Below are positions 11,910 to 47,239 of a DNA stretch of 64,000 nucleotides, in pieces. The DNA is taken from NCBI RefSeq assembly GCF_035594765.1, contig NC_085842.1, positions 4,339,256 through 4,403,255 of the forward strand. The letters run 5' to 3'. Below the pieces are notes generated by a model that ran no database searches, was not told the DNA's origin, and saw nothing but the letters and a program-made list of their open reading frames with translations. The translations under genes and the position numbers were made by a program. Origin of the DNA: Anolis carolinensis. Lineage: Eukaryota. Positions within the stretch are counted from its first letter, which is position 1. Each line of letters begins with the position of its first letter.

Positions 11910-12949
11910 TTAGCTTGGGGACCCAACGATGCCTGGGTTATTTGAAAAAGGCATGATTCATTTTTGGATGTTAGATATTCTCAGTTTAGTGCGGGTGAAC
12001 TACAATTCCCAGAATCGTGGGTCAATCCTCCCTGTTGGGTCTGTGTGCCAAGTTTGGTCCAGATACGTTGCCATCTGGCTGTAGTGCTCTCTGAATTGTT
12101 TGGGTTCATAGTGCACTCTGGATGTAGGTGAACTACAACTCCTATAAATCCCCCCCAAGACCTCCAATATTTTTTATTGGTCATGGGGGTTCTGTGTGCC
12201 AAATTAGTTCCAGGGCCATCACTGGTGGGGTCCAGAGTGCTCTTTGATTGTAGGTGAACTATAAATACCAGTGCCTACAACAGCTGTAAGTTTGGCCCAG
12301 ATACGACATCTGGCTGTAGTGCTCTCTGGGTTTGGGTTCATAGTGTGTTCTGGGTGTAGGTGAACTACAACTCCTATAAATCCCCCCAAACGTCTCCAGC
12401 GTTTTTCTTTGGTCATGGGGGTTCTGTGTGCCCAATGTGGTCCAGGTCCATGGTCAGTGGGGGTCACAGTGTTCTGACTTGATGCAGGGTGAACTACAAC
12501 TTCCATCATGTGGAGTCAATCCCCCAAACTCCTCCAGTATGTTTAGCTGCTGCTCAGTTCTGCTCTGTTATGCAGACAGAGTTGAAAAGAGTAGGAAAGG
12601 GTTAAGGGAGAAGCAGTGGGCAGGGTCATGCAAATTCCACAGCAATGGAGAGATAAAGGTATCCTGGGATGCCTGCCTGTGGTGGAGGAAACACTAACAT
12701 CTAGGATGAAATGGTCCCCGAATGAAAGCATTCCTTGGGTGGTGGGCCGTAATGTTTGGGGAGGACATTGGTAGGGTTTGGGCTACATGTTCATGGCGGT
12801 CACTATAACCTGCAATGTCAGTGGAAGGAGGGCCATTGGTGTCTCAGGGGGAACTAGAGCTGTTTGTGGAGGTGGGAGGCTGTCTGTGTAAGTGGACACA
12901 TCTGCCACATACACACATACACATTTTTAACTTTTATTATGTGTATAGA
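11910..12949 (-). mobile_element. Helitron-like element (family B) carrying ~120-bp ACTACAACTCCC repeats
   Basis: Minus strand starts TCTATACAC and ends hairpin CCCAGGCATCGTTGGG..AAGCTAA. Related copies start at ctagcttgg near 43011 and 56181. Confidence 0.55.
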
Positions 12950-13328
12950 TATAGAAAGAACCTTTTAGGAAGGAAAGGCCTGACGAACTATATCGAACAA
13001 AGTCTCACAGAAATTGATGTATAAGTAACATCAAAAGTATAAGAACAATCAAAAGCCATTGTTGTAACCACCAAGCATCTGTTACTGAAACCATCATGCT
13101 GTCGCTTACATACCTCACCAGTGACAAATAAACAGACAGTTATTGTTTCACCTTATTCAATGTCTCTCTCTCTCAAATCCCAACAATAATAAAAGTAAGG
13201 CTCCTGAACACATGAACAGTGGGATATTTGGAATAAACCCTTATCCTCTATATATTTTGGAGGCACAGGATAAGCACAGGACATTGGCCTTTCAGGAGCA
13301 ACCCAAAGAAGACAAAAGGAATCCTTAC

Positions 13329-13433
13329 CCAGAGAAGCCATGCTCCCGTCATCCTCCATCCTGACTTCCTTATAGGGTGACCCTATTCCTTCTCTGCAAG
13401 TTTCACAGACACCTTCGGAAAGGTCACAAGATG
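13329..13433 (-). CDS. ZNF-A internal exon: eroded KRAB-A-derived exon (105 nt)
   Basis: ctttcag|CATCTTGTGACCTTT...GCTTCTCTGG|gtaagg. The phase-0 frame reads LVTFPKVSVKLAEKE*. The phase-1 frame is open and ends YKEVRMEDDGSMASL. Confidence 0.7.
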
Positions 13434-13535
13434 CTGAAAGACGTAAAGATTAAGTAAATGGGTTCCTAGTTACACACCAAACTACATACCCTCAAGTACA
13501 ATGATATGCACTGGTCAATGGTCAATAAACAGGTA

Positions 13536-14061
13536 TCTATATATATAAAAGAGGGATGGCATCAGGGCAGCGGACAAAACAACAAAACTACAGGCCCCCC
13601 AACCTTGAAATTTGACAACACAACCCATCATTCACGCCTCTAGGTTGATACAACAAAAAGAAAAGAAAAATAAAGTCCTAATTACAGGGAGAGGAATAAT
13701 AGTTTTAATCCAATTGCTGCCAGTTAGAAGGATAAGCTCCGCCCACTTGGTCTCCTAGCAACCTACTCAGCTCAGGGGACAGGCACAGTTAGGCCTCACT
13801 TAGGCCTCTTCCACAGATTATCAGATTTTAACTGGATTATATGGCAGTGTAGACTCAAGGCCCTTCCACACAACTATATAACCCATTTAGAATCTTATAT
13901 TATCTGCTTTGAACTGGATTATCTTGACTCCACACTGCCATATAATCCACTTCAGTGTGCATACTAAACATAAAGACAACCATACAACAGACATTCAGTA
14001 CCACCACTACCTCAACAATTTCTCACCAACACCACAGCAATGCGTGGCCAGGCACAGCTAG
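13536..14061 (+). mobile_element. Non-autonomous Helitron (family A)
   Basis: a|TCTATATATATAAAAGAG...CCACAGCAATGCGTGG..CACAGCTAG|t. Confidence 0.8.
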
Positions 14062-14076
14062 TAAAATATAAACTTA

Positions 14077-14845
14077 CTAGCTGTGCCCGGCCACACATTG
14101 CTGTGGCTTATGGGAATCATTTGTTGGCCAGGTGGAATAGCAGTGAATAGCCTTGCAGCCTCAAAGCCTGTCTACTTCCTGCTTGGGGGAATCCTTTGTT
14201 GGGAGGTGTTAGCTGGCCCTGATTGTTGCCTGTCTGGAATTTCTCTGTTGTCAGAGTGTTGCTCTTTATTTACTGTCCTGATTTTAGAGATTATATTGTT
14301 CTGTATTATACCACAACAATTATTATATATTATATTTATAACCTTATATTATCTGCTTAGAACTGGATTATATGAGGCCCCTTCTACACAGCTGTATAAA
14401 ATCCACACTGAACTGAGTTATATGGCAGTGTGGACTCAAGATAATCCAGTTCAAAGCAGATACTGTAGATTATCTGCCTTGGCATTCTGGGTGTGGAAGG
14501 GCCTTGAGTCTACACTGCCATATAATCCAGTTCAAATCAGATAATCTGTATTTTATAGGCAGTGTGGAAGAGGCCTGAGTGAAGAGGCCCTGGGCACCAT
14601 TCTGGCTGAGTGGGTTGCTAGGAGATGAAGTGGGCGGAGCCTACCCTTCTAACTTGCAGCAAGGGGAAAACACAGTTCTTCCTCTTCCTCTAATTTGGAC
14701 TTTATTTTTCTAGGGTTTTTTTTTCTTTGAAAGACATAGACTGGATGACTATGTCTTTTGTGGCTAAATTTGGTGTGATTTGGTTCAGTGGTTTTGTTGT
14801 TTACTCCATAGTAAAACATCACATTACATTTATATATATATAAGA
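14077..14845 (-). mobile_element. Non-autonomous Helitron (family A), tail-to-tail with the previous copy 15 bp away
   Basis: Starts ctagctgtgcccggccacac on the plus strand and ends tatatatatataaga|t. Confidence 0.75.
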
Positions 14846-16518
14846 TATTTAATGAATTACAATAAGTACAGAATTTACAATTATAATGCTGATGCTCCGT
14901 ACATCAAAATGAATATATAACCGAACAATGCTGGCTCTATACATAAATTTGCCCCTTATGAAATCAATCAGTTGAAATGAAGAGCATGTAGAACACACAA
15001 CCGGTTTCAACTCTCAGTCTTCCTCAGGTGAATTCATCTGAGAAAATTATAATGAATTAACAGGAGCACATAACATATCCACACAAATACAGTTATAACT
15101 CTGACATAAGTACTCAAAATTGTACATTCGCCCTTTACATTCTTCTCTCAAGTTTGTATTCCTATATCTTTTTTCTCTGATGGGTACTGAACAAAAGGAA
15201 CATACAGTGGCTATAACAAGATCAAAAGTTTTAAGATTTCAAATTCAAAAGTTTATATACATATCCGTATACTCACAGTGTCTGTGAATTTATGTATTTC
15301 TGTGACTCTCTGTTAGTTCTTACTGCGAGTATAGAATGTTCTTTGGGATCACCCATAATATAATGGGAAAATTTATCATCAGGTGAGATGATTTCAAGTA
15401 CCAGCTAGACTGTATGGATCCATTTAAAGCGATAAGGAGCTACTGCATATAATGATATATATTCATTTTGATGTACGGCACATCAACTTTACAATTGTAA
15501 ATTCTGTACTTACGGTATTTCATTAAATATAAGTTTATATTCTATACTTGTTTATTGACCATTGACCAGTGCATATTGTTGCACTGTATACCGTATATAC
15601 TCGAGTATAAGCCGACCTGAATATAAGCCAAGGCACCTAATTTTACCACAAAAAACCTGGGAAAACATTAACTCCAGTATAAGCTGAAATACCAATAAAA
15701 TTACATTAATTGAGGCATCAGTAGTTTAAATGTTTTTGAATCTTTACATCAAACTGTAATTTAAGATATGACTGTTCAACTCTGATTAAATCATTATTTC
15801 CATCTTCTTCAATGTAAATGTGCTTATGTATCCTTTCAATAATAATAGAGTAAAATAATAAATGTAATAATAATAATAATAATAAATGCAGTAAAATAAT
15901 AAATGCAATAATAATAATAAATGCAATAATAATAATAATAAATGCAGTAAAATAATAAATGTAATAATAATAAAATAGAGTAAAATAAATGTAAAAGTAA
16001 CAACAATAATAGAGTAAAATAATAAATGTAATAATAATCATTAATAGAGAAAATAATAAATATACAATATATACTTGAGTATAAGCCGACCTGAATATAA
16101 GCCCCTCAGGACCTTCACCCGAGTATAAGCCGAGGAGGTTTTTTTTCAGTCTTAAAAAAGGGCTGAAAAACTAGGCTTATACTCAAGTATATACAGTATA
16201 TTAGCTTGGAAAGAAGTAAAGAAACATTTGACATTCAGAAATAATTTCTCCAATGAGATGTTCCACAAAGCGAAAAAGGGAGAGAGCCCACTTGTACCCC
16301 TCTTTGTTCTCACTGTTGGAGACACATCCAGCTAAAAGGAAATCTGAAAAAGGAAAGCAATCGATAGAGCCCAAATGCAAACCGCATCCCTCTTATACAG
16401 TGAGAAATTACTTTTAATCCTTGCAAGACTCGCTCTCAATGTCAGCGCTCAAAAGTGGCACAACATTTTCTGAGGATATAATTACTTCATTATTTATATA
16501 GAGCAACAGATATCTATA

Positions 16519-17741
16519 TCTATATAAATGTTCTGCATAGTTTCTGCTTTAAGGTAAACAAAAAACTAAACAACCCAAACCCACAAAACTTGGCCACAAA
16601 ATACATGGTCATCCAGACTGTGTTAAGACATCAAAAAACCCAAGAAAAATAAAGTCCTAATTAAAGGGAGAGGAATAACTCTTTTTTTCCCCATTGATGC
16701 CAGTTAGAAGGCTAAGCTTCGCTCACTTTGTCTCCTAGCAACCCACTCAGCCATTAAATGGCACCCAGGGCCTCTTCAATCAGGCCTCTTCCACACTGCC
16801 TATAAAATACAGATTATCTGTTTTGAACTGGATTATATGGCAGTGTAGACTCAAGGCCCTTCCACACAGCTATATTATCCATTTATAATCTTATCTGCTT
16901 TGAACTGGATTATCTTGAGTCCACACTGCCATATAATCCACTTCAGTGTGCATTTTATACAGCTGTGTAGAAGGAGCCTCATATAATCCAATTCTAAGAA
17001 GATAATATAAGATTATCAATATACAGTAGAGTCTCACTTATCCAACATAACACCCCGGCAGAAGGTTGGATAAGCGAATATGTTGGATAATAAGAAGGGA
17101 TTAAGGAGAAGTCTATTAAACATCAAATTAGGTTATGATTTTATAAATTAAGCACCAAAACATCATGTTATACAACAAATTTGACAGAAAAAGTAGTTCA
17201 ATGCGCAGTAATGCTATGTAGTAATTACTGTGTTTACGAATTTAGCACCAAAACATCACAGTGTATTGAAAACATTGACTACAAAAACATTGACTACTAA
17301 AAGGCCGACTGTATTGGATAATCCAGAACATTGGATAAGCGAATGTTGGATAAGTGAGATTCTGCTGTAATATGAAATAATTACTGCGGTATAATAATAC
17401 AGAACAATATAATCTCTAAAACCAGGACAGTAAATAAAGAGCAACACTCTGAAAGTAGGGAAATTGGGAATTCCAGAAAGGAAACAATCAGGGCCAGTTA
17501 ACACTTCCCAACAAAGGATTCTCCCAGGCAGGAAACAAACAGGCTTTGAAGCTGCAAGGCTAATTGCAGCATTCATACCTGCCACACCGAGACTATTAAT
17601 TGCTATTCAAACTGGCCAACCAAGGATTGCGCAAGGTAGAAAGTGGCCAGGCTTGCAAGCAGCAAGGCTATTCAGTGCTATTCCACCTGGCCAACAAAGA
17701 ATTCCCATAAGCCACAGCAACGCGTGGCCGGGCAAAGCTAG
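16519..17741 (+). mobile_element. Non-autonomous Helitron with a nested MITE and a 30-bp flanking duplication
   Basis: TCTATATAAATG start; ends GCCACAGCAACGCGTGGC..AAAGCTAG at 17741. Confidence 0.7.
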
Positions 17742-19411
17742 TTATTTATATAGAGCAACAGATATCTATATATCTCTATTAAGTGTTAAGTTGTTCTGTA
17801 ACTAAATCAAGTATGACACTGATTTATAGAGTGCATATAATATGTACGGTAAGATTATTGTTACTACTGATACTAACAATAATATTACTGTACATATTAC
17901 AGTACAGTCTCACTTATCCAACCTTCACTTATCCAACAATCTGGATTATTCAACACGGTCGGCCTCCTGCCACGATCCACAGCTGTTTCTCTAGGCAGCA
18001 AGGACTGAACTTTTCACGGATTTAATTCCCGACAATGTTGTTGCTGTAAGGTCATTCTATGCAATTCTATCTTTATTTGTAGTGTTTTTCTTAGTAGTCA
18101 AAGTTTTTGCAGTCAATGTTTTCAATACATTGCGATGTTTTGGTGCTAAATTTGTAAATACAGTAGAGTCTCGCTTATCCAACATAAATGGGCCGGTAGA
18201 ACATTGGATAAGCGAAAATGTTGGATAATAAGAAGGGATTAAGGAAAAGCCTATTAAACATCAAATTGCATTATGATTTTACAAATTAAGCACCAAAACA
18301 TCATGTTTTACAACAAATTGATCCCTTCTTATTATCCAACATTTTCGCTTATCCAATGTTCTGCCGGCCCGTTTATGTTGGATAAGTGAGACTCTACTGT
18401 ATATGCATTGTATAAATCAGTGTCATAATTGATTTAGTTACAGAACAACTTAACACTTATATAGATATACAGTAGAGTCTCACTTATCCGACTTTCTGGA
18501 TTATCTAACGCATTTTTGTAGTCAATGTTTTCAATACATCGTGATATTTTGGTGCTAAATTTGTAAATACAATCATTACTACATAGCATTACTGCGTATT
18601 GAACTACCTTTTTCTGTCAAATTTGTTGTATAACACGATGTTTTGGTGCTTAATTTGTAAAATCACAACCTAATTTGATGTTTAATAGGCTTTTCCTTAA
18701 TGCCTCCTTATTATCCAACATACAGTAGAGTCTCACTTATCCAACACTCGCTTATCCAACGTTCTGGATTATCCAACGTTCTGGATTATCCAACGCATTT
18801 TTATAGTCAATGTTTTCAATATATCGTGATATTTTGGTGCTAAATTTGTAAATACAGTAATTACTACATAGCATTACTGCGTATTGAACTACCTTTTTCT
18901 GTCAAATTTGTTGTATAACATAACGTGATGTTTTGGTGCTTAATTTGTAAAATCACAACCTAATTTGATGTTTAATAGGCTTTTCCTTAATCTCTCCTTA
19001 TTATCCAACATACAGTAGAGTCTCACTTATCCAACACTCGCTTATCCAACGTTCTGGATTATCCAACGCATTTTTATAGTCAATGTTTTCAATATATCGT
19101 GATATTTTGGTGCTAAATTTGTAAATACAGTAATTACTACATAGCATTACTGCGTATTGAACTACTTTTTCTGTCAAATTTGTTGTATAACATAACGTGA
19201 TGTTTTGGTGCTTAATTTGTAAAATCACAACCTAATTTGATGTTTAATAGGCTTTTCCTTAATCCCTCCTTATTATCCAACATATTTGCTTATCCAACAT
19301 TCTGCCGGCCCGTTTATGTTGGATAAACGAGACTCGACTGTAATTACTTCCCGAAATGTCAACATGTTTACTTTGGAAGGGATACATTGTATTCTTGTTT
19401 TGGATACTCAC

Positions 19412-19576
19412 AGGAAATTTGGCGAAGGCGATTTTGCTGCTTCCTTGTTCCTTTTGCAGGCGGCAGATCACTCGCATTCAGATGAACAAAAGCCGGGGAG
19501 GATGCTTGCACGGCGTGCGTGTTTCTCTCCTCGGCATCTCTTTCTCTCCAGTCCGACACACCCTTCACTTGGGATC
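19412..19576 (-). CDS. ZNF-A internal exon (165 nt, phase 1-1)
   Basis: ccttttcccctcctgcag|GATCCC...ATTTCCT|gtgagt. Open frame SQVKGVSDWRERDAEE...NRLRQIS in unique, non-repeat sequence. Confidence 0.6.
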
Positions 19577-20099
19577 CTGCAGGAGGGGAAAAGGAGACAG
19601 ACAGACAGACAGGCAGACCGACAGAGAGAGGCAGGTGTGCCTTTTGTCCTCCAAAGAGCAGAAGCACAGGTTTCCAGAGAGACAAGAGAAGCAAACAAAA
19701 GGGGGAGCAGGCGGGAGGAAAGGGGCCGCTTGAGGGGGGAGCAGTGAGGCCCACACGGAGACACGGGCATGGCCCTTGCTTGGAAATATTTGTAAATATT
19801 TGATGTTAGGACATGTGTCATAATCATGTTATTCTACCATGACATCCCCAGTGCAGTCGCATAAAATAAGGACAAATGGGCCAGGAAGGTGACATTAGCT
19901 GGCCATTTGATGGGCTTTGATGTGCAAGAAAGGGGGAACATCAGAGCATCTCGGTGATGGATGCCTGCCCTATACAGACTGAGAGCAGGGTAAGATTGAT
20001 CAATGGCTCTGATGTGTGGGAAAGGGCAGGCATCAGTCAGAAGATTCCTGTGATGTATAACATTATAGGGTAAGCCCCATATATATGGAACACCTCATA

Positions 20100-20518
20100 C
20101 CCTGTTTCCCCGAAAATAAGACATCCCCAGAAAATAAGGCCTAGTAAAGGTTTTGCTGGATTGCTAAATATAAGGCCTCCCCCAAAAGTAAGACCTAGCA
20201 AAGTTTTTGTTTAGAAGCATGCCCGCCAAACACAACACCAGAGCACACAGTATTGGTAAATGTACATACCATTGAATGTTGTACATGGAAATAATGGTAG
20301 TAACAAGAAATTTTTGATAGGATTCACAGTTTGTCTGGTTATGCTGGTTTGTGATGAGAACTACTGTACAGTATATAATAAATGTCAAAAAATTTGTTCA
20401 ACAATAAATTTAAATTCTTCTTCATTGAAAAATAAGACATCCCCTGAAAATAAGACCTAGCACATCTTTGGGAGCAAAAATTAATATAAGACACTGTCTT
20501 ATTTTCGGGGAAACACGG
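20100..20518. mobile_element. Tc1/mariner/pogo-type MITE, family 3
   Basis: TA-flanked TIRs tgtttccccgaaaataagaca...tgtcttattttcggggaaaca, with subterminal aaataag repeats. Confidence 0.75.
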
Positions 20519-21297
20519 TATATATCCCATGTGTGTATATGTATATTATTATTAATTCATTTCTATCCCGCTTTTCTCCCATGGATGGGACTCAAAGCAG
20601 CGTACAAAGTTTAAAACCAATATAAATACATCAGAACACAATACATAATCAACTAAACATCATTTACAAATGCAGTAGAGTCTCACTTATCCAACCTTCA
20701 TTATCAAATGTTCTGTGTTATCCAACACAGTTTGCCTTTTAGCAGTCAGTGTTTTTGTAGTCAATTTTTCAATACATTGTGAAGTTTTGGTGCTAAATTC
20801 GTAAATACAACTATTACTACGTAACGTTACTGTGTATTGAACTGCTTTTTCTTTCCATTTGTTGTAAAACATGATGTTTTAATTTGTAAAATCATAATGG
20901 AATTTGATGTTTAATAGGCTTATTATCCAACATTTTAGCTTATCCAACGTTCTGCCAGCCCGTTTATGTTGGATAAGTAAGACTCTACTGTATAAAAATA
21001 ACCTAATTTAACACATCATATAAAACAGTTAAAACTTACAAGTACCAATTAAAAGTATCAATAACCTCCAGCCATTGAGGTTGTTTGTAAAACTAAAAAT
21101 TATACGGCTTCTAAGACACCTCTTTTCCAAGGTCAGATTGCAGTAAATGCCACAAGCATTTACATACAAATGTATGTATATCTGTATCTGTATCTGTGTG
21201 TGTGTGTGTATTAGATTGTATTTGTGTGTGTGACAGAATATACACACACATGCACATCCATACGTACAGGTATATAAGGATAAGGGATGCTCAATGT

Positions 21298-21610
21298 AGG
21301 TAAAGATTTCCCCCAACATTAAGTCTAGTCGTGTCCGACTCTGGTGGGGGTTGGTGCTCATCTCCATTTCTAAGCCAAAGAACCGGTGTTGTCTGTAGAC
21401 ACCTCCAAGGCCATGTGGCCGACATGACTGCATGGAGCACCGTTACCTTCCCATTGGAGCGGTATCTATTGATCTACTTACATTTGCATGTTTTCAAACT
21501 GCTAGGTTGGCAGAAGCTGGGGCTAACAGCAAGCGCTCACTCCGCTCCCTGGATTTGAACCTGCAACCTTTCGGTCTGCACGTTCAGCACCTCAGCAGTT
21601 TATCGGGGGC
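21298..21610 (-). mobile_element. Sauria SINE
   Basis: Characteristic core and (acctt)n-type tail. Further copies at ~26133-26460 (-), 32655-32972 (+), 33370-33625 (fold-back), 34064-34380 (-) and 43595-43896 (-). Confidence 0.8.
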
Positions 21611-21642
21611 TCAATGTACACTATATATATAGACATACACAT

Positions 21643-21675
<33 letters not shown>

Positions 21676-22259
21676 TTGATATGTGGACACAGTCATCCCC
21701 CCAGCCATATATAGCAAAAATATGAAATGCAGATTTGATAAATATGGATATGAATATATATTGTGTTGGTATGAATGGAAGAATGAATGAATGAAAACTA
21801 ATAATTTTGGAGACACCATTCTAAAATATTAAGGTCTGCAATGACTAACCTCCTACTTGCTGAATTGTAATAAAAAGTTGCAATGTGTGAAATAGTCGAG
21901 CTGCCTGGTAAAACGTGATAGGAACTGGGACAGTGTTAAGAGAAATGTTTACATCAAGTTAAGGAAATATTTACAACTGTTAAGAAGGAAGTCAACACAA
22001 GGCTAACACCAATCAAAAAGAATCAACATCTGGTGCAGGAAACTGAGATGGAGCTAGGATATTCCAGGATGGAAGATGTCTAGCATTAATTTGCAACTTT
22101 GGGACAACATCAGTAAAATATTGCTATATAAGTGACATTATGACAATCCAGCAATTGTGACAGACAGAGACGCTGTTCACCCACCATGCTCTGCTACATG
22201 GGAAGGCCAGAGATAGTGTACGTGTCAGAGCTGCTATGGGAAAGCAGGATTCTGCTCAC

Positions 22260-22377
22260 TTTTGGGGCCTCTTTTTCTCATGGGAAGAAAAAAAGAGTGC
22301 GTTTTAGAGTCATGTAGTTGCATAGAATCTGTATGTTTGCATGAGAGGTTGTTATGCTTTGTGGGCAAGCTGGCCAT
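22260..22377 (-). CDS. ZNF-A first coding exon (exon 22402-22260, ATG at 22377)
   Basis: Long polypyrimidine acceptor ..ccacctgcctcag| at 22402, Kozak ATAATGG, MASLPTKHNNLSC...RKRGPK, donor A|gtgagc (phase 1). Joins the three downstream exons into a 1512-nt open frame. Confidence 0.55.
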
Positions 22378-23183
22378 TATTATCCTCGGTTCCTGGACGA
22401 GTCTGAGGCAGGTGGAGAAAGCAGAGAGGGGAAAGAAAGAAAACCAGACTGCCTCGGCCTCTTCTCTTTCATTGTTGTCTCTTTTGGGGACAAAAAGGCG
22501 GCTGATGAAGGGGCTGCTGGATGTAGGCTCTCCTCTTTTCACCACTTAGGCCTGGCTGCCGTATCAGGGACGGCTGTCTCCCTGGCAATGGTTGGTGCAT
22601 TATTTTTTTCTCCACATGTTGGAGGGGGCCAGAGCTAAGGGGTTATATCTTGCACATGCACTGTGTTGTTTTCTTAATGTTTTGGATTTTTTTAATGTCC
22701 TTTTTTGGGGTTTTCTTTTTTCTTTGTGGTGGTCAGTCATTGGGTAGTGAGTTTTGTGGCCAAATTTGGTGTTATTTGCTCCAAGGGTTTTGCTATTAAT
22801 TCGGTTCTACAAGCAGTATACAGTATAAACAGTAGAGTCTCGCTTATCCAACATAAACGGGCTGGAAGAACTTTGGATAAATGAAAATGCTGGATAATAA
22901 GGCAGGATTAAGGAAAAGCCTTAACAAATTGACAGAAAAAGCAGTTCAATATATGGCAATTATGAAGTAATTACTGTGTTTACAAATTTACCAAAACATC
23001 CCAATGTATTGAAAATATAGACTACAAAAAACATTGACTACTAAAAGGCAGACTACGTTGGATAATACAGAATGTTGGATAAGGGAGGTTGGATAAACAA
23101 GACTCTACTGTATATAGATTATATGGGTTGGGTGCAATAATAATAATAATAAATGTGTGTGTGTATTTATATGTGTGTATGTG

Positions 23184-23218
<35 letters not shown>

Positions 23219-27499: not shown

Positions 27500-28625
27500 C
27501 TGGGCCAACTCCAGGTGTTTTGGACTTCAACTCCCACAATGCCTTGTACTTTCCTCCTCCTCCTCCTCCCTTCTTCCTCCCACCAAGTAAACAAGCTCCT
27601 CCCAGGCACTTTCCGGAAGTGACGTCAGAGGAAATTGCGTCACTCTCTTTCTCCATTAGCATTCCCTACCTCTCTAGGAAGCTGAGCTCGCATTTGGAGG
27701 ACTCAGGTGGGACCCAAAGGCGCTTCTTCTTTTTCTTCCTCTATTTTCCTGCAAAGGTAAGCCTTGAGGAGGGTAGGAGAGTTAGAAAGGGAATAAATAC
27801 AAATCCCAACGGGCGAGGGAATGAGGTAAACTGTGAGGCCCTGATGTCACGTGATTGGGCCGCGTCGGGGAGGGGTTGAGCCAATGGGACGCTGATTGGT
27901 AGGACTCCTCTTCGGATTTGAATACGGCCCCTGATTGGCTGTTGCTGTGGCGACGCCAGGGCGGTGCTCCGGCCTGTTTTATGCCCAGTCAGGGAAGGAG
28001 GGGGCGCGCTGAGTAAATGCGAACGTTGAGCGCGAGCGCTGATTGGTGGGACGCCTCTTTAGATTTGAATACGGCTCCTGATTGGCTGTTGCTCTGGCGA
28101 CGGCAGGGCGGTCCTCTTGCCTGTTTAATGCCCCGTCAGAGTAGACGCAGGAAGGAGGGGGCGTGCGCTGAGTATACTGAACGTTCAGCGTGAGCGCTGA
28201 TTGGTTGGGACTCATGTCTGGATTTGAATACGGCTCCTGATTGGCTGTTGCTCTGGCGACGGCAGGGCGGTCCTCTTGCCTGTTTAATGCCCCGTCAGAG
28301 TAGACGCAGGAAGGAGGGGGCGTGCGCTGAGTATACTGAACGTTCAGCGTGAGCGCTGATTGGTTGGGACTCATGTCTGGATTTGAATACGGCTCCTGAT
28401 TGGCTGTTGCTCTGGAGACGGCAAGGAGGTGCGCGTTCCCGTTTTGTGCCCAGTCAGGAAAGACGCGGGAGGGAGGTGGCGAGCGCTGATTGGTGGGACG
28501 CCCGTTGAATTTTGAATACGGCTCCCGATTGGCTATTGCTGTGGAAACGTCAGGGCGGAAGGAGGAAGAGGGTTGCGAGCGCCCTTAGTCACGTGTAGGG
28601 AAGCCGAGTGGAAGGGAAAAGGTGA
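27500..28625. promoter_or_regulatory. CpG-island promoter between divergent ZNF-A and ZNF-B
   Basis: CpG-dense. ETS-CRE CCGGAAGTGACGTCA at 27613-27627, E-boxes GTCACGTG at ~27846 and ~28588, more than 10 CCAAT boxes, plus-strand donors aag|gtaagc (27757) and aag|gtgagt (28622). Confidence 0.8.
27891..28560. repeat. Five tandem copies (about 130-159 bp; last copy partial) of a CCAAT / ATTTGAAT / CCAAT / X-box-like module
   Basis: Units start gctgattgg at 27891, 28038, 28196, 28355 and 28485. The central units are nearly identical. Confidence 0.9.
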
Positions 28626-31570: not shown

Positions 31571-31893
31571 TCTACACTGATGACTTCGTGTAGCCTGTGA
31601 TTCAGTCCAAAGCTTCTCCATGAAATCAAGGAATCTAGAGGTCCTTCAGGAGAACTTCTGTCTGCACCACTGGATCTTCTTGGTATTTGATTCTTCGATG
31701 TTCATTGAGATTGTTCATTGTCTGAAGGAGACTGGAGGTCCTTCAGGAGAACTTCCATCCACACTGCTGGCTCTTCCTGGTCTTTGATTCTTTGATGTTC
31801 ACTGAGATTGTCCATTGTCTCCTTTTTCAGGATCTGGTGGCTGTTAAAGAGAAGCCTGAATCTTCCGCAGAAGAGGAGCCTTTATTGGGAGAC

Positions 31894-31942
31894 ATGGAGG
31901 TCGTGGAGGAGAGCTCCGAGAGTGTGGCCTCCTCAGAAAGAG
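31894..31942 (+). CDS. ZNF-B coding part of exon 31831-31942 (highly eroded KRAB-A-like exon)
   Basis: cctttttcag|GATCTGGTG...GAAAGAG|gtatcc. 112 nt, phase 0 to 1, reads DLVAVKEKPESSAEEEPLLGDMEVVEESSESVASSER. In-frame ATG in GACATGG context at 31894. Confidence 0.6.
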
Positions 31943-35846: not shown

Positions 35847-35921
35847 TAAATGTAATTATCATAATTTGAGTTTGTTTTCCCACTTTGGTGATTTCCTCTT
35901 CCAAAACTTCCCTTCCTTCAG

Positions 35922-36538
35922 GTGATTCCAAGGAGAAGAGGAAGAAGGAGGCAACTGTCGAAAATCAAGATTGGGACCACGATGCAGCTTACATTTCCCC
36001 CGAAGGGACTTACCTGCCTCAAACCGAATCACTTGGAGGAAATCGCACAGGAAATGAAATAAGCCTGCCAAAGCTGTCTGAGTTCGAGAAGAGCATCCTC
36101 CAGCCGATCTTCCACGACAAAGGCGAGAAAGCAGCCCCCAAAGTAGAGGACGTGCACCGATGCTTGGACTGTGGCAAGACCTTCAACCTCAACTCCAAGC
36201 TGAAGCTGCACCAGAAGATCCACTCCGAGGAGAAGCCCTTCGAGTGCCCCGAGTGCGGGAGGCACTTCCGCCACAAGGGGAACCTCCAGACGCACCAGAG
36301 GATCCACGTGAAGGATAAACCCTTCCGCTGCGAGGAGTGCGGGCGCTGCTTCAGCTACAGCTGGATCCTCCAGAAGCACCTCAAGTTCCACGAAAGCAGG
36401 AGGCTCCCCGTCAAGGAGAAAGCGGCTCCATCGTGGATCGGGCCACAAAAGGATCCTTCGCTCAACGGAGAAGCAACGCAAGGAGCCGTTGCTTCCAACG
36501 CTGAAGCAGAAGAGTTGACGCAGGTGTCGACTGATTGA
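35922..36538 (+). CDS. ZNF-B terminal exon: spacer, 3 C2H2 fingers and a C-terminal tail
   Basis: Acceptor cttcccttccttcag|GTGAT (phase 1). Fingers CLDC..HQKIH, CPEC..HQRIH and CEEC..HLKFH. Confidence 0.85.
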
Positions 36539-46860: not shown

Positions 46861-47239
46861 TCCTTTTGTCTTAAGATTTAAATATTTTGTCAAAGGTTTA
46901 CAAATATGAACTTCTTGAATAAAATTTCTTTGATTATTCTGTAGCTTCTCTGGTATAGTTTCCAAATGATTCTTTTTAGAGCACAGTCTTGTTTTTCTTC
47001 TTCAAATTCATACGTGTATGGTTTTCAATATTATGTTTTCCTCTACTTATTTCCTTCTTGTTATTGCTGTGTTACTGTCTGTAAAAAAGCAGGAAAAACT
47101 TATTAGGAGTTGAGCAAAAGATCTCATCTGACCTCAAGACCAATAGTCCAGTGCTGCAGCAGGGCCAGGAGAAGAGAGGACGAAAACTGGCCTACCTGAA
47201 AAGAGCTCATTGCATTTCAAAACATCTTTTAACTCAATT

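Follow-up and report, generated by a model that had tools for sequence, protein, structure and literature searches.

The window considered here is the whole analysed stretch of 64,000 nucleotides from Anolis carolinensis. On its minus strand lies a zinc-finger gene with a decayed KRAB-A exon at positions 13433–13329; the gene is present in a single copy and sits in a KRAB zinc-finger cluster. The features of the locus are as follows (positions are those of the window).

9792–10915, minus strand: last exon, encoding a linker of about 70 aa and 11 C2H2 fingers; phase-1 acceptor, no stop or frameshift
13329–13433, minus strand: decayed exon derived from KRAB-A, 105 nt with AG/GT ends, recognized by paralog alignment and a DNA profile
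13357–13359, minus strand: strong-context ATG (AGG ATG G) sharing the frame of the finger exon; putative start of a 384-aa protein
13374–13380, minus strand: site of a 22-nt deletion, its placement being uncertain within about this span
13383–13385, minus strand: TAG at the conserved Trp of KRAB-A, in the ancestral frame
19412–19576, minus strand: upstream exon 2, 165 nt, single copy; prediction only
21715–22309, no strand assigned: high-copy interspersed repeat of about 600 nt, 80–85% identical to its other copies
22260–22377, minus strand: first coding exon (exon 1), with a strong-context ATG in unique sequence; prediction only
27600–28560, no strand assigned: candidate shared promoter with CpG-rich 159-nt tandem repeats and CCAAT boxes

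The finger array (9792–10915) is contained in one last exon, gave a PF00096 match of 208.8 bits and has linkers of the TGEKP type. Cysteine and histidine residues are kept in 11/11 fingers, and no lesion was found in 1119 nt of this exon, whereas the rate at which the 5' part of the KRAB-A exon has decayed would predict 19–30. This absence of lesions makes it likely that the finger protein is, or was until recently, under selection. The linker of the closest paralog is only 45% identical to that of the gene, which argues that the gene is not young. A word-based protein search found neither the protein itself nor an ortholog (13 matches among 36 candidates, all distant), and two more searches of this kind, with 8000 candidates scored in each and long finger arrays dominating, returned none. 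An exact look-up of four open-frame versions of the protein gave no match; spliced forms fall outside such a look-up. The finger-exon stretch was present in 18 of 24 sequencing-run rows (6 studies), none of which is recorded as RNA, and this has no bearing on expression.

The CpG-rich 159-nt units with repeated CCAAT boxes occupy positions 27890–28560, between two divergent zinc-finger genes, and within 27600–28560 they are adjoined by motifs that we take to be CRE- and ETS-like. Similar arrays were found at G000:C2:4480979–4481785 and at positions 42–121 of the window. The array of these units is probably a promoter array specific to the cluster, and the candidate promoter at 27600–28560 may serve the gene described here.

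The exon 13433–13329 matched a DNA profile built from 30 intact KRAB-A exons with 51.8 bits (E 2e-14). Together with its alignment to paralog exons, this bears out the KRAB-A origin proposed for it in the first-pass annotation, and other structural claims made there also agree with the present results. Both splice signals are kept, with AG/GT ends at 13433 and 13329: the acceptor is pyrimidine-rich, ends in ...CGTCTTTCAG and ranks 15/1051, and the donor, TGG followed by GTAAGG, ranks 11/986. The exon is 105 nt long, the usual length being 127 nt (7/10 parsed intact loci; 30 were fetched). In a global alignment with intact 127-nt paralog exons, the loss of 22 nt appears as a single gap directly 3' of the Trp codon. 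Read from the acceptor in the ancestral phase-0 frame, the exon gives HLVTFPKVSVKLAEKE and then stops in the conserved Trp column at TAG 13385–13383, located 23 nt 5' of ATG 13359 and 54 nt 5' of the donor. The ATG in AGGATGG context was likewise found, at 13359; it divides the exon into a 5' part of 74 nt and a 3' part of 31 nt that encodes MEDDGSMASL in the ancestral frame. Two separate lesions and similar decay in six paralogs make an assembly error an unlikely explanation.

The characteristic motifs of the exon are altered (FE[DE]V to FPKV, VMLE to VRME) and the middle of the domain is deleted. The Pfam cut-off for KRAB (20.4 bits) was not reached, and no family was found in either frame, including a translation with X at the stop. 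A KRAB-A-derived exon upstream and a phase-1 acceptor at the finger exon are present as in KRAB zinc-finger genes, and no frame connects a whole KRAB-A with the fingers. The gene is a KRAB-ZNF descendant, but it fails the defining KRAB tests.

The DNA-profile scan covered an 815-kb region surrounding the window, of which 128 kb are N, together with 30 kb around one distant linker relative, and 16 KRAB-like exons were found. It was revealed that seven of them, including 13433–13329, form one clade (bootstrap 95, SH-aLRT 89). The bootstrap had not fully settled and the branches are long, and the clade could partly arise from long-branch attraction; a tree built from the first 600 nt of the finger frames gave no resolution. 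All seven exons have AG/GT ends, each lies 5' of an open frame with 11–20 fingers, and V-M-L-E is altered in every one, most of them reading V-[RK]-[MVI]-E. Frameshifts are present in five exons, with lengths of 125, 111, 105, 128 and 128 nt, and the 111-nt exon is symmetric, yet closed in the finger frame. One further exon has a stop at codon 2, which splicing to an acceptor 6 nt further downstream could avoid; the last one, a variant KRAB, is open (28.7 bits).

An in-frame ATG follows the last stop in 7/7 clade exons and falls in the same column in 4/7 (3/6 others). In five of the six other exons, a finger-frame stop precedes this ATG, so that read-through is blocked; in one of the five the stop can be bypassed. 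The frame-breaking lesions counted in the clade (10–11) all lie 5' of the ATG column, a distribution with a borderline chance of 0.05–0.06, and the last 31 nt of the clade exons contain none. The in-frame ATG is the ancestral state, found in 29/29 intact exons, and its strong context is not enriched in the clade (5/7 versus 15/29 intact exons). In the clade exon C2:4664689, the same ATG fails to reach the fingers and the linker has stops; judging by its sequence, this paralog can only start in the last exon.

Several other zinc-finger loci were noted. A second, more decayed KRAB-like exon (31831–31942, plus strand; 112 nt, frame 0 open, 20.7 bits with the DNA profile) lies outside the seven-exon clade and upstream of a 3-finger exon (35870–36535, plus strand). 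The open frame at 47001–45196 (minus strand) encodes 18 fingers and has a close paralog at G000:C2:4460460; no KRAB-like exon was found upstream of it within the window. An otherwise canonical 121-nt KRAB-A exon at G000:C2:4512324–4512175 (minus strand) has the same change of Trp to TAG, and an intact close copy is adjacent at 4499829. In the KRAB-A exon of the distant linker relative (G000:C2:19370277–19370171, minus strand), the 5' end is replaced by unrelated sequence and the ATG and donor are kept. Three weak linker matches (L132–L134) in G000:C2:12995802–13433073 may be further members of the subfamily.

A profile of the linker was compared with 1.84 billion representatives, which gave 14 matches; 13 sequences were compared. 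The nearest named relatives of the gene are from lizards. In two computed models from Sceloporus undulatus (XP_042308793.1 and XP_042309082.1), the first Met is in the column of ATG 13359, and their starts, MEEDGKKAFL and MENDENMDSP, align to MEDDGSMASL. A computed model from Elgaria (XP_062979024.1) starts one codon earlier, with the canonical MLENYG. These three models share with the gene the linker family and a Met start within the last 10–11 KRAB-A codons, and no Pfam KRAB is among the families listed for them; XP_042308793.1 differs in having 16 extra residues before the linker. Their linkers are 32–47% identical to that of the gene, and none is a clear one-to-one ortholog. A Phrynosoma model contains YKEVRMKD inside an open KRAB (39.9 bits). 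Since lizard models start at this position and Phrynosoma has the stretch inside an open KRAB, the Met of ATG 13359 is old. A full KRAB-like N-terminus was found in 7/13 relatives (P0133, P0259, P0261–P0264 and P0266); the others include one Sceloporus model with an unclear short start and one partial Phrynosoma model. In one Phrynosoma model (P0257, KAH0630671.1), AT-hook exons are joined to a variant KRAB of this subfamily, which may be a prediction artefact; no similar AT-hook exon was found in the 815-kb region.

We propose, with a probability of roughly 0.5, that KRAB has been lost from the gene and that the exon 13433–13329 now provides a 5'UTR and the predicted start (13359) of a KRAB-less 11-finger protein of 384 aa. 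The first-pass annotation had offered this ATG as an alternative start, and the comparisons favour it, namely the stops in the clade and the two Sceloporus models that start there. The first step would have been the loss of the VMLE motif in the clade ancestor, with V-M-L-E becoming V-[RK]-[MVI]-E, and the 5' three quarters of the KRAB-A exon would then have decayed separately in each gene, the splice sites and the last ten codons being retained, presumably because they carry the start. The exon would still be spliced in, mostly as an untranslated leader (its 5' 74 nt). If exon 2 is included, ribosomes may reach ATG 13359 either by scanning leakily past two short uORFs or by re-initiating after them. 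One of these, of 19 codons, is opened by ATG 19537 of exon 2; the other would run for 38 codons to the TAG from ATG 19477, whose context is weak and which is in phase 0 relative to the ancestral KRAB frame. The latter would be the old KRAB N-terminus, and ATG 19477 agrees with a former start exon whose product is now cut short at the TAG. Translation from ATG 13359 would yield ten residues from the end of the former KRAB-A, followed by the linker and the 11 fingers. In mammalian KRAB, the MLE motif (within VMLE) is needed for TRIM28 binding, according to the available part of the source (PMC8835667). Because this motif is lost here, the 384-aa product is predicted to bind DNA and not to recruit TRIM28. 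Leaky scanning could yield more than one protein form.

The start-exon reading is consistent with a clade of seven exons in which stops come before the ATG in five of the six others and three of the six share its column. The position of all 10–11 clade lesions 5' of that column, the intact last exon and the lizard models that start at or one codon before the Met of 13359 also argue for it. On the other side, the in-frame ATG is ancestral and its strong context is not enriched in the clade, and in C2:4664689 it is cut off from the fingers by linker stops. The lesion-position test is borderline, and the starts of the relatives are computed, with 7/13 keeping a KRAB-like N-terminus. The proximity of the TAG to the ATG (23 nt) and to the donor (54 nt) could hinder re-initiation or invite decay. 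Finally, under this reading an open upstream chain is left as a coincidence.

That chain underlies the reading put forward in the first-pass annotation, in which the exon is translated in a new frame. Splicing the four predicted exons in silico (22377–22260, 19576–19412, 13433–13329 and the finger exon) did give a continuous 503 codons from ATG 22377, open throughout. The N-terminus of such a protein would be made of part of the repeat, the upstream exon and 19 KRAB-A codons in a shifted frame. Because the exon became symmetric through the 22-nt deletion, its shifted frame rejoins the ancestral one and is followed by 11 intact fingers. The claim of a new frame holds in part. The phase-1 frame of the exon is open, but only its first 19 codons are new; the following 15 codons, YKEVRMEDDGSMASL, are the ancestral KRAB-A frame. 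The TGA that closes the shifted frame in most intact exons is missing here, which fits the 503-aa reading. However, the open shifted frame by itself is weak evidence, because an opening of 19 codons is common by chance. The same frame is open in 5/29 intact exons (1 of the 30, lacking the Trp anchor, was left out), and base shuffling put the chance of an open frame at 0.34, codon shuffling at 0.11 and simulated drift at 0.31–0.39, so that the observed case falls within chance (0.11–0.39). Among the frameshifted clade exons, 13433–13329 is the only one of five open in the finger frame (the other four, 0/4, include the second symmetric exon), which matches the chance expectation.

The upstream exons were assessed in the same way. 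Exon 2 is the top-scoring of 59 candidate exons, its acceptor ranks 1/1051, and it is open in the frame needed for the 503-aa chain (chance 0.08), which speaks for this reading; but 28/90 control windows have a top candidate exon that scores at least as well. The scores came from a donor matrix and from an acceptor matrix whose training set consisted of 30 local exons. The phase of ATG 19477, in turn, makes exon 2 look like an old start exon, which counts against the 503-aa reading. ATG 22377 has a strong context and lies behind good acceptors, and the donor of exon 1 has G at +5, where C is found in 5/5 other repeat copies; these points are favourable. However, this donor and the last 50 nt of exon 1 lie inside the interspersed repeat 21715–22309, for which a genome search gave 928 candidate copies, 40 of them scored. 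An open chain of at least 90 codons ending in phase 1 was found in only 4/90 control windows when a strong ATG was demanded, but in 18/90 with any ATG, the score thresholds having been set at the observed values.

Further comparisons do not favour the 503-aa reading. Exons 1–3 in the 503-aa frame gave no Pfam family above the cut-off, exon 2 has no relative in the genome or in the cluster, and a comparable N-terminus is present in 0/13 linker relatives. In addition, a symmetric exon can be skipped without changing the frame. As to the locus in general, no retrocopy or close paralog was found for exons 2 and 3, and no match to the N-termini of the linker relatives was found upstream of exon 13433–13329. 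Searches for a SCAN remnant within the 64-kb window, for a KRAB-B-like exon among the strong candidates in the last intron and for Rfam matches in 9000–23200 were negative. On balance, translation from ATG 22377 appears unlikely, and we are equally doubtful that a KRAB repressor has here become a protein with a new 119-residue N-terminus composed of the end of a repeat, a former leader exon and a frame-shifted KRAB-A exon.

Somewhat less probable still is that the exon 13433–13329 is a relic, skipped or untranslated, and that translation starts in the last exon. Its linker does contain further in-frame ATGs, at 10880 and 10847, one of them in strong context, which would give finger proteins of 362 or 351 aa. 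The paralog C2:4664689, apparently limited to such a start, and human ZNF252 (PMC2865497, as far as the source was available) provide parallels. Nevertheless, both splice signals of 13433–13329 score well, and the AG/GT ends, kept in 7/7 clade exons, and the lesion-free last 31 nt across the clade do not suggest a relic; if the exon is included, the strong-context ATG 13359 comes first. A pseudogene in early decay, in which the TAG makes the old N-terminus a uORF, little protein is produced and lesions have yet to reach the fingers, would agree with two disabling lesions in the effector exon, with a TAG 54 nt from the donor and with the absence of the protein from the exact look-up and word searches, but it is improbable given the lesion-free 1119 nt, the preserved Cys and His of all 11 fingers, a paralog linker too divergent for a young gene and look-ups that are blind to spliced forms.

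The loss of KRAB through decay of an exon that is itself retained is already known, for example, in human ZNF252. According to the available part of the source (PMC2865497), ZNF252 has an out-of-frame KRAB-A exon among untranslated 5' exons, in transcripts confirmed by RT-PCR. As in the lizard gene, the KRAB-A exon does not share a single frame with the fingers; that of ZNF252 was seen in a spliced transcript, whereas here splicing is predicted. The two genes also differ in that translation of ZNF252 was placed in the last exon and a stop interrupts its finger array as well, while the lizard gene has intact fingers and a start predicted to lie within the KRAB-A exon. In the accessible text of PMC2443715, KRAB loss by sequence degeneration with a kept exon layout is described as a recurrent theme. 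Dog LOC488318, reported there, resembles the lizard gene in keeping the position of the exon and in showing KRAB in its DNA but not in its protein; start-codon reuse is not described in that text, and the lizard case involves seven paralogs with different lesions. The part of PMC3126818 that was available contained nothing specific to this comparison. Canonical KRAB-A C2H2 repressors (PF01352 and PF00096) share with the gene the cluster location, the exon layout and the phase-1 junction into the finger exon, but they contain a KRAB match, which the gene has in neither frame. A literature search, with subscription papers mostly beyond reach, found neither start-codon reuse in decayed lizard KRAB-A exons nor a new-frame reading of a KRAB exon.

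The lizard case is a variant in which one subfamily seems to have made the KRAB-A exon its start exon, with lesions that differ from gene to gene. If the new-frame reading were true, the case would be more striking, since the origin of an N-terminus by frameshift could then be traced. If the start-exon reading is true, repressors that recruit TRIM28 could become plain DNA binders in a simple way, and the number of repressors in reptiles would be overestimated wherever KRAB genes are counted by their exons.
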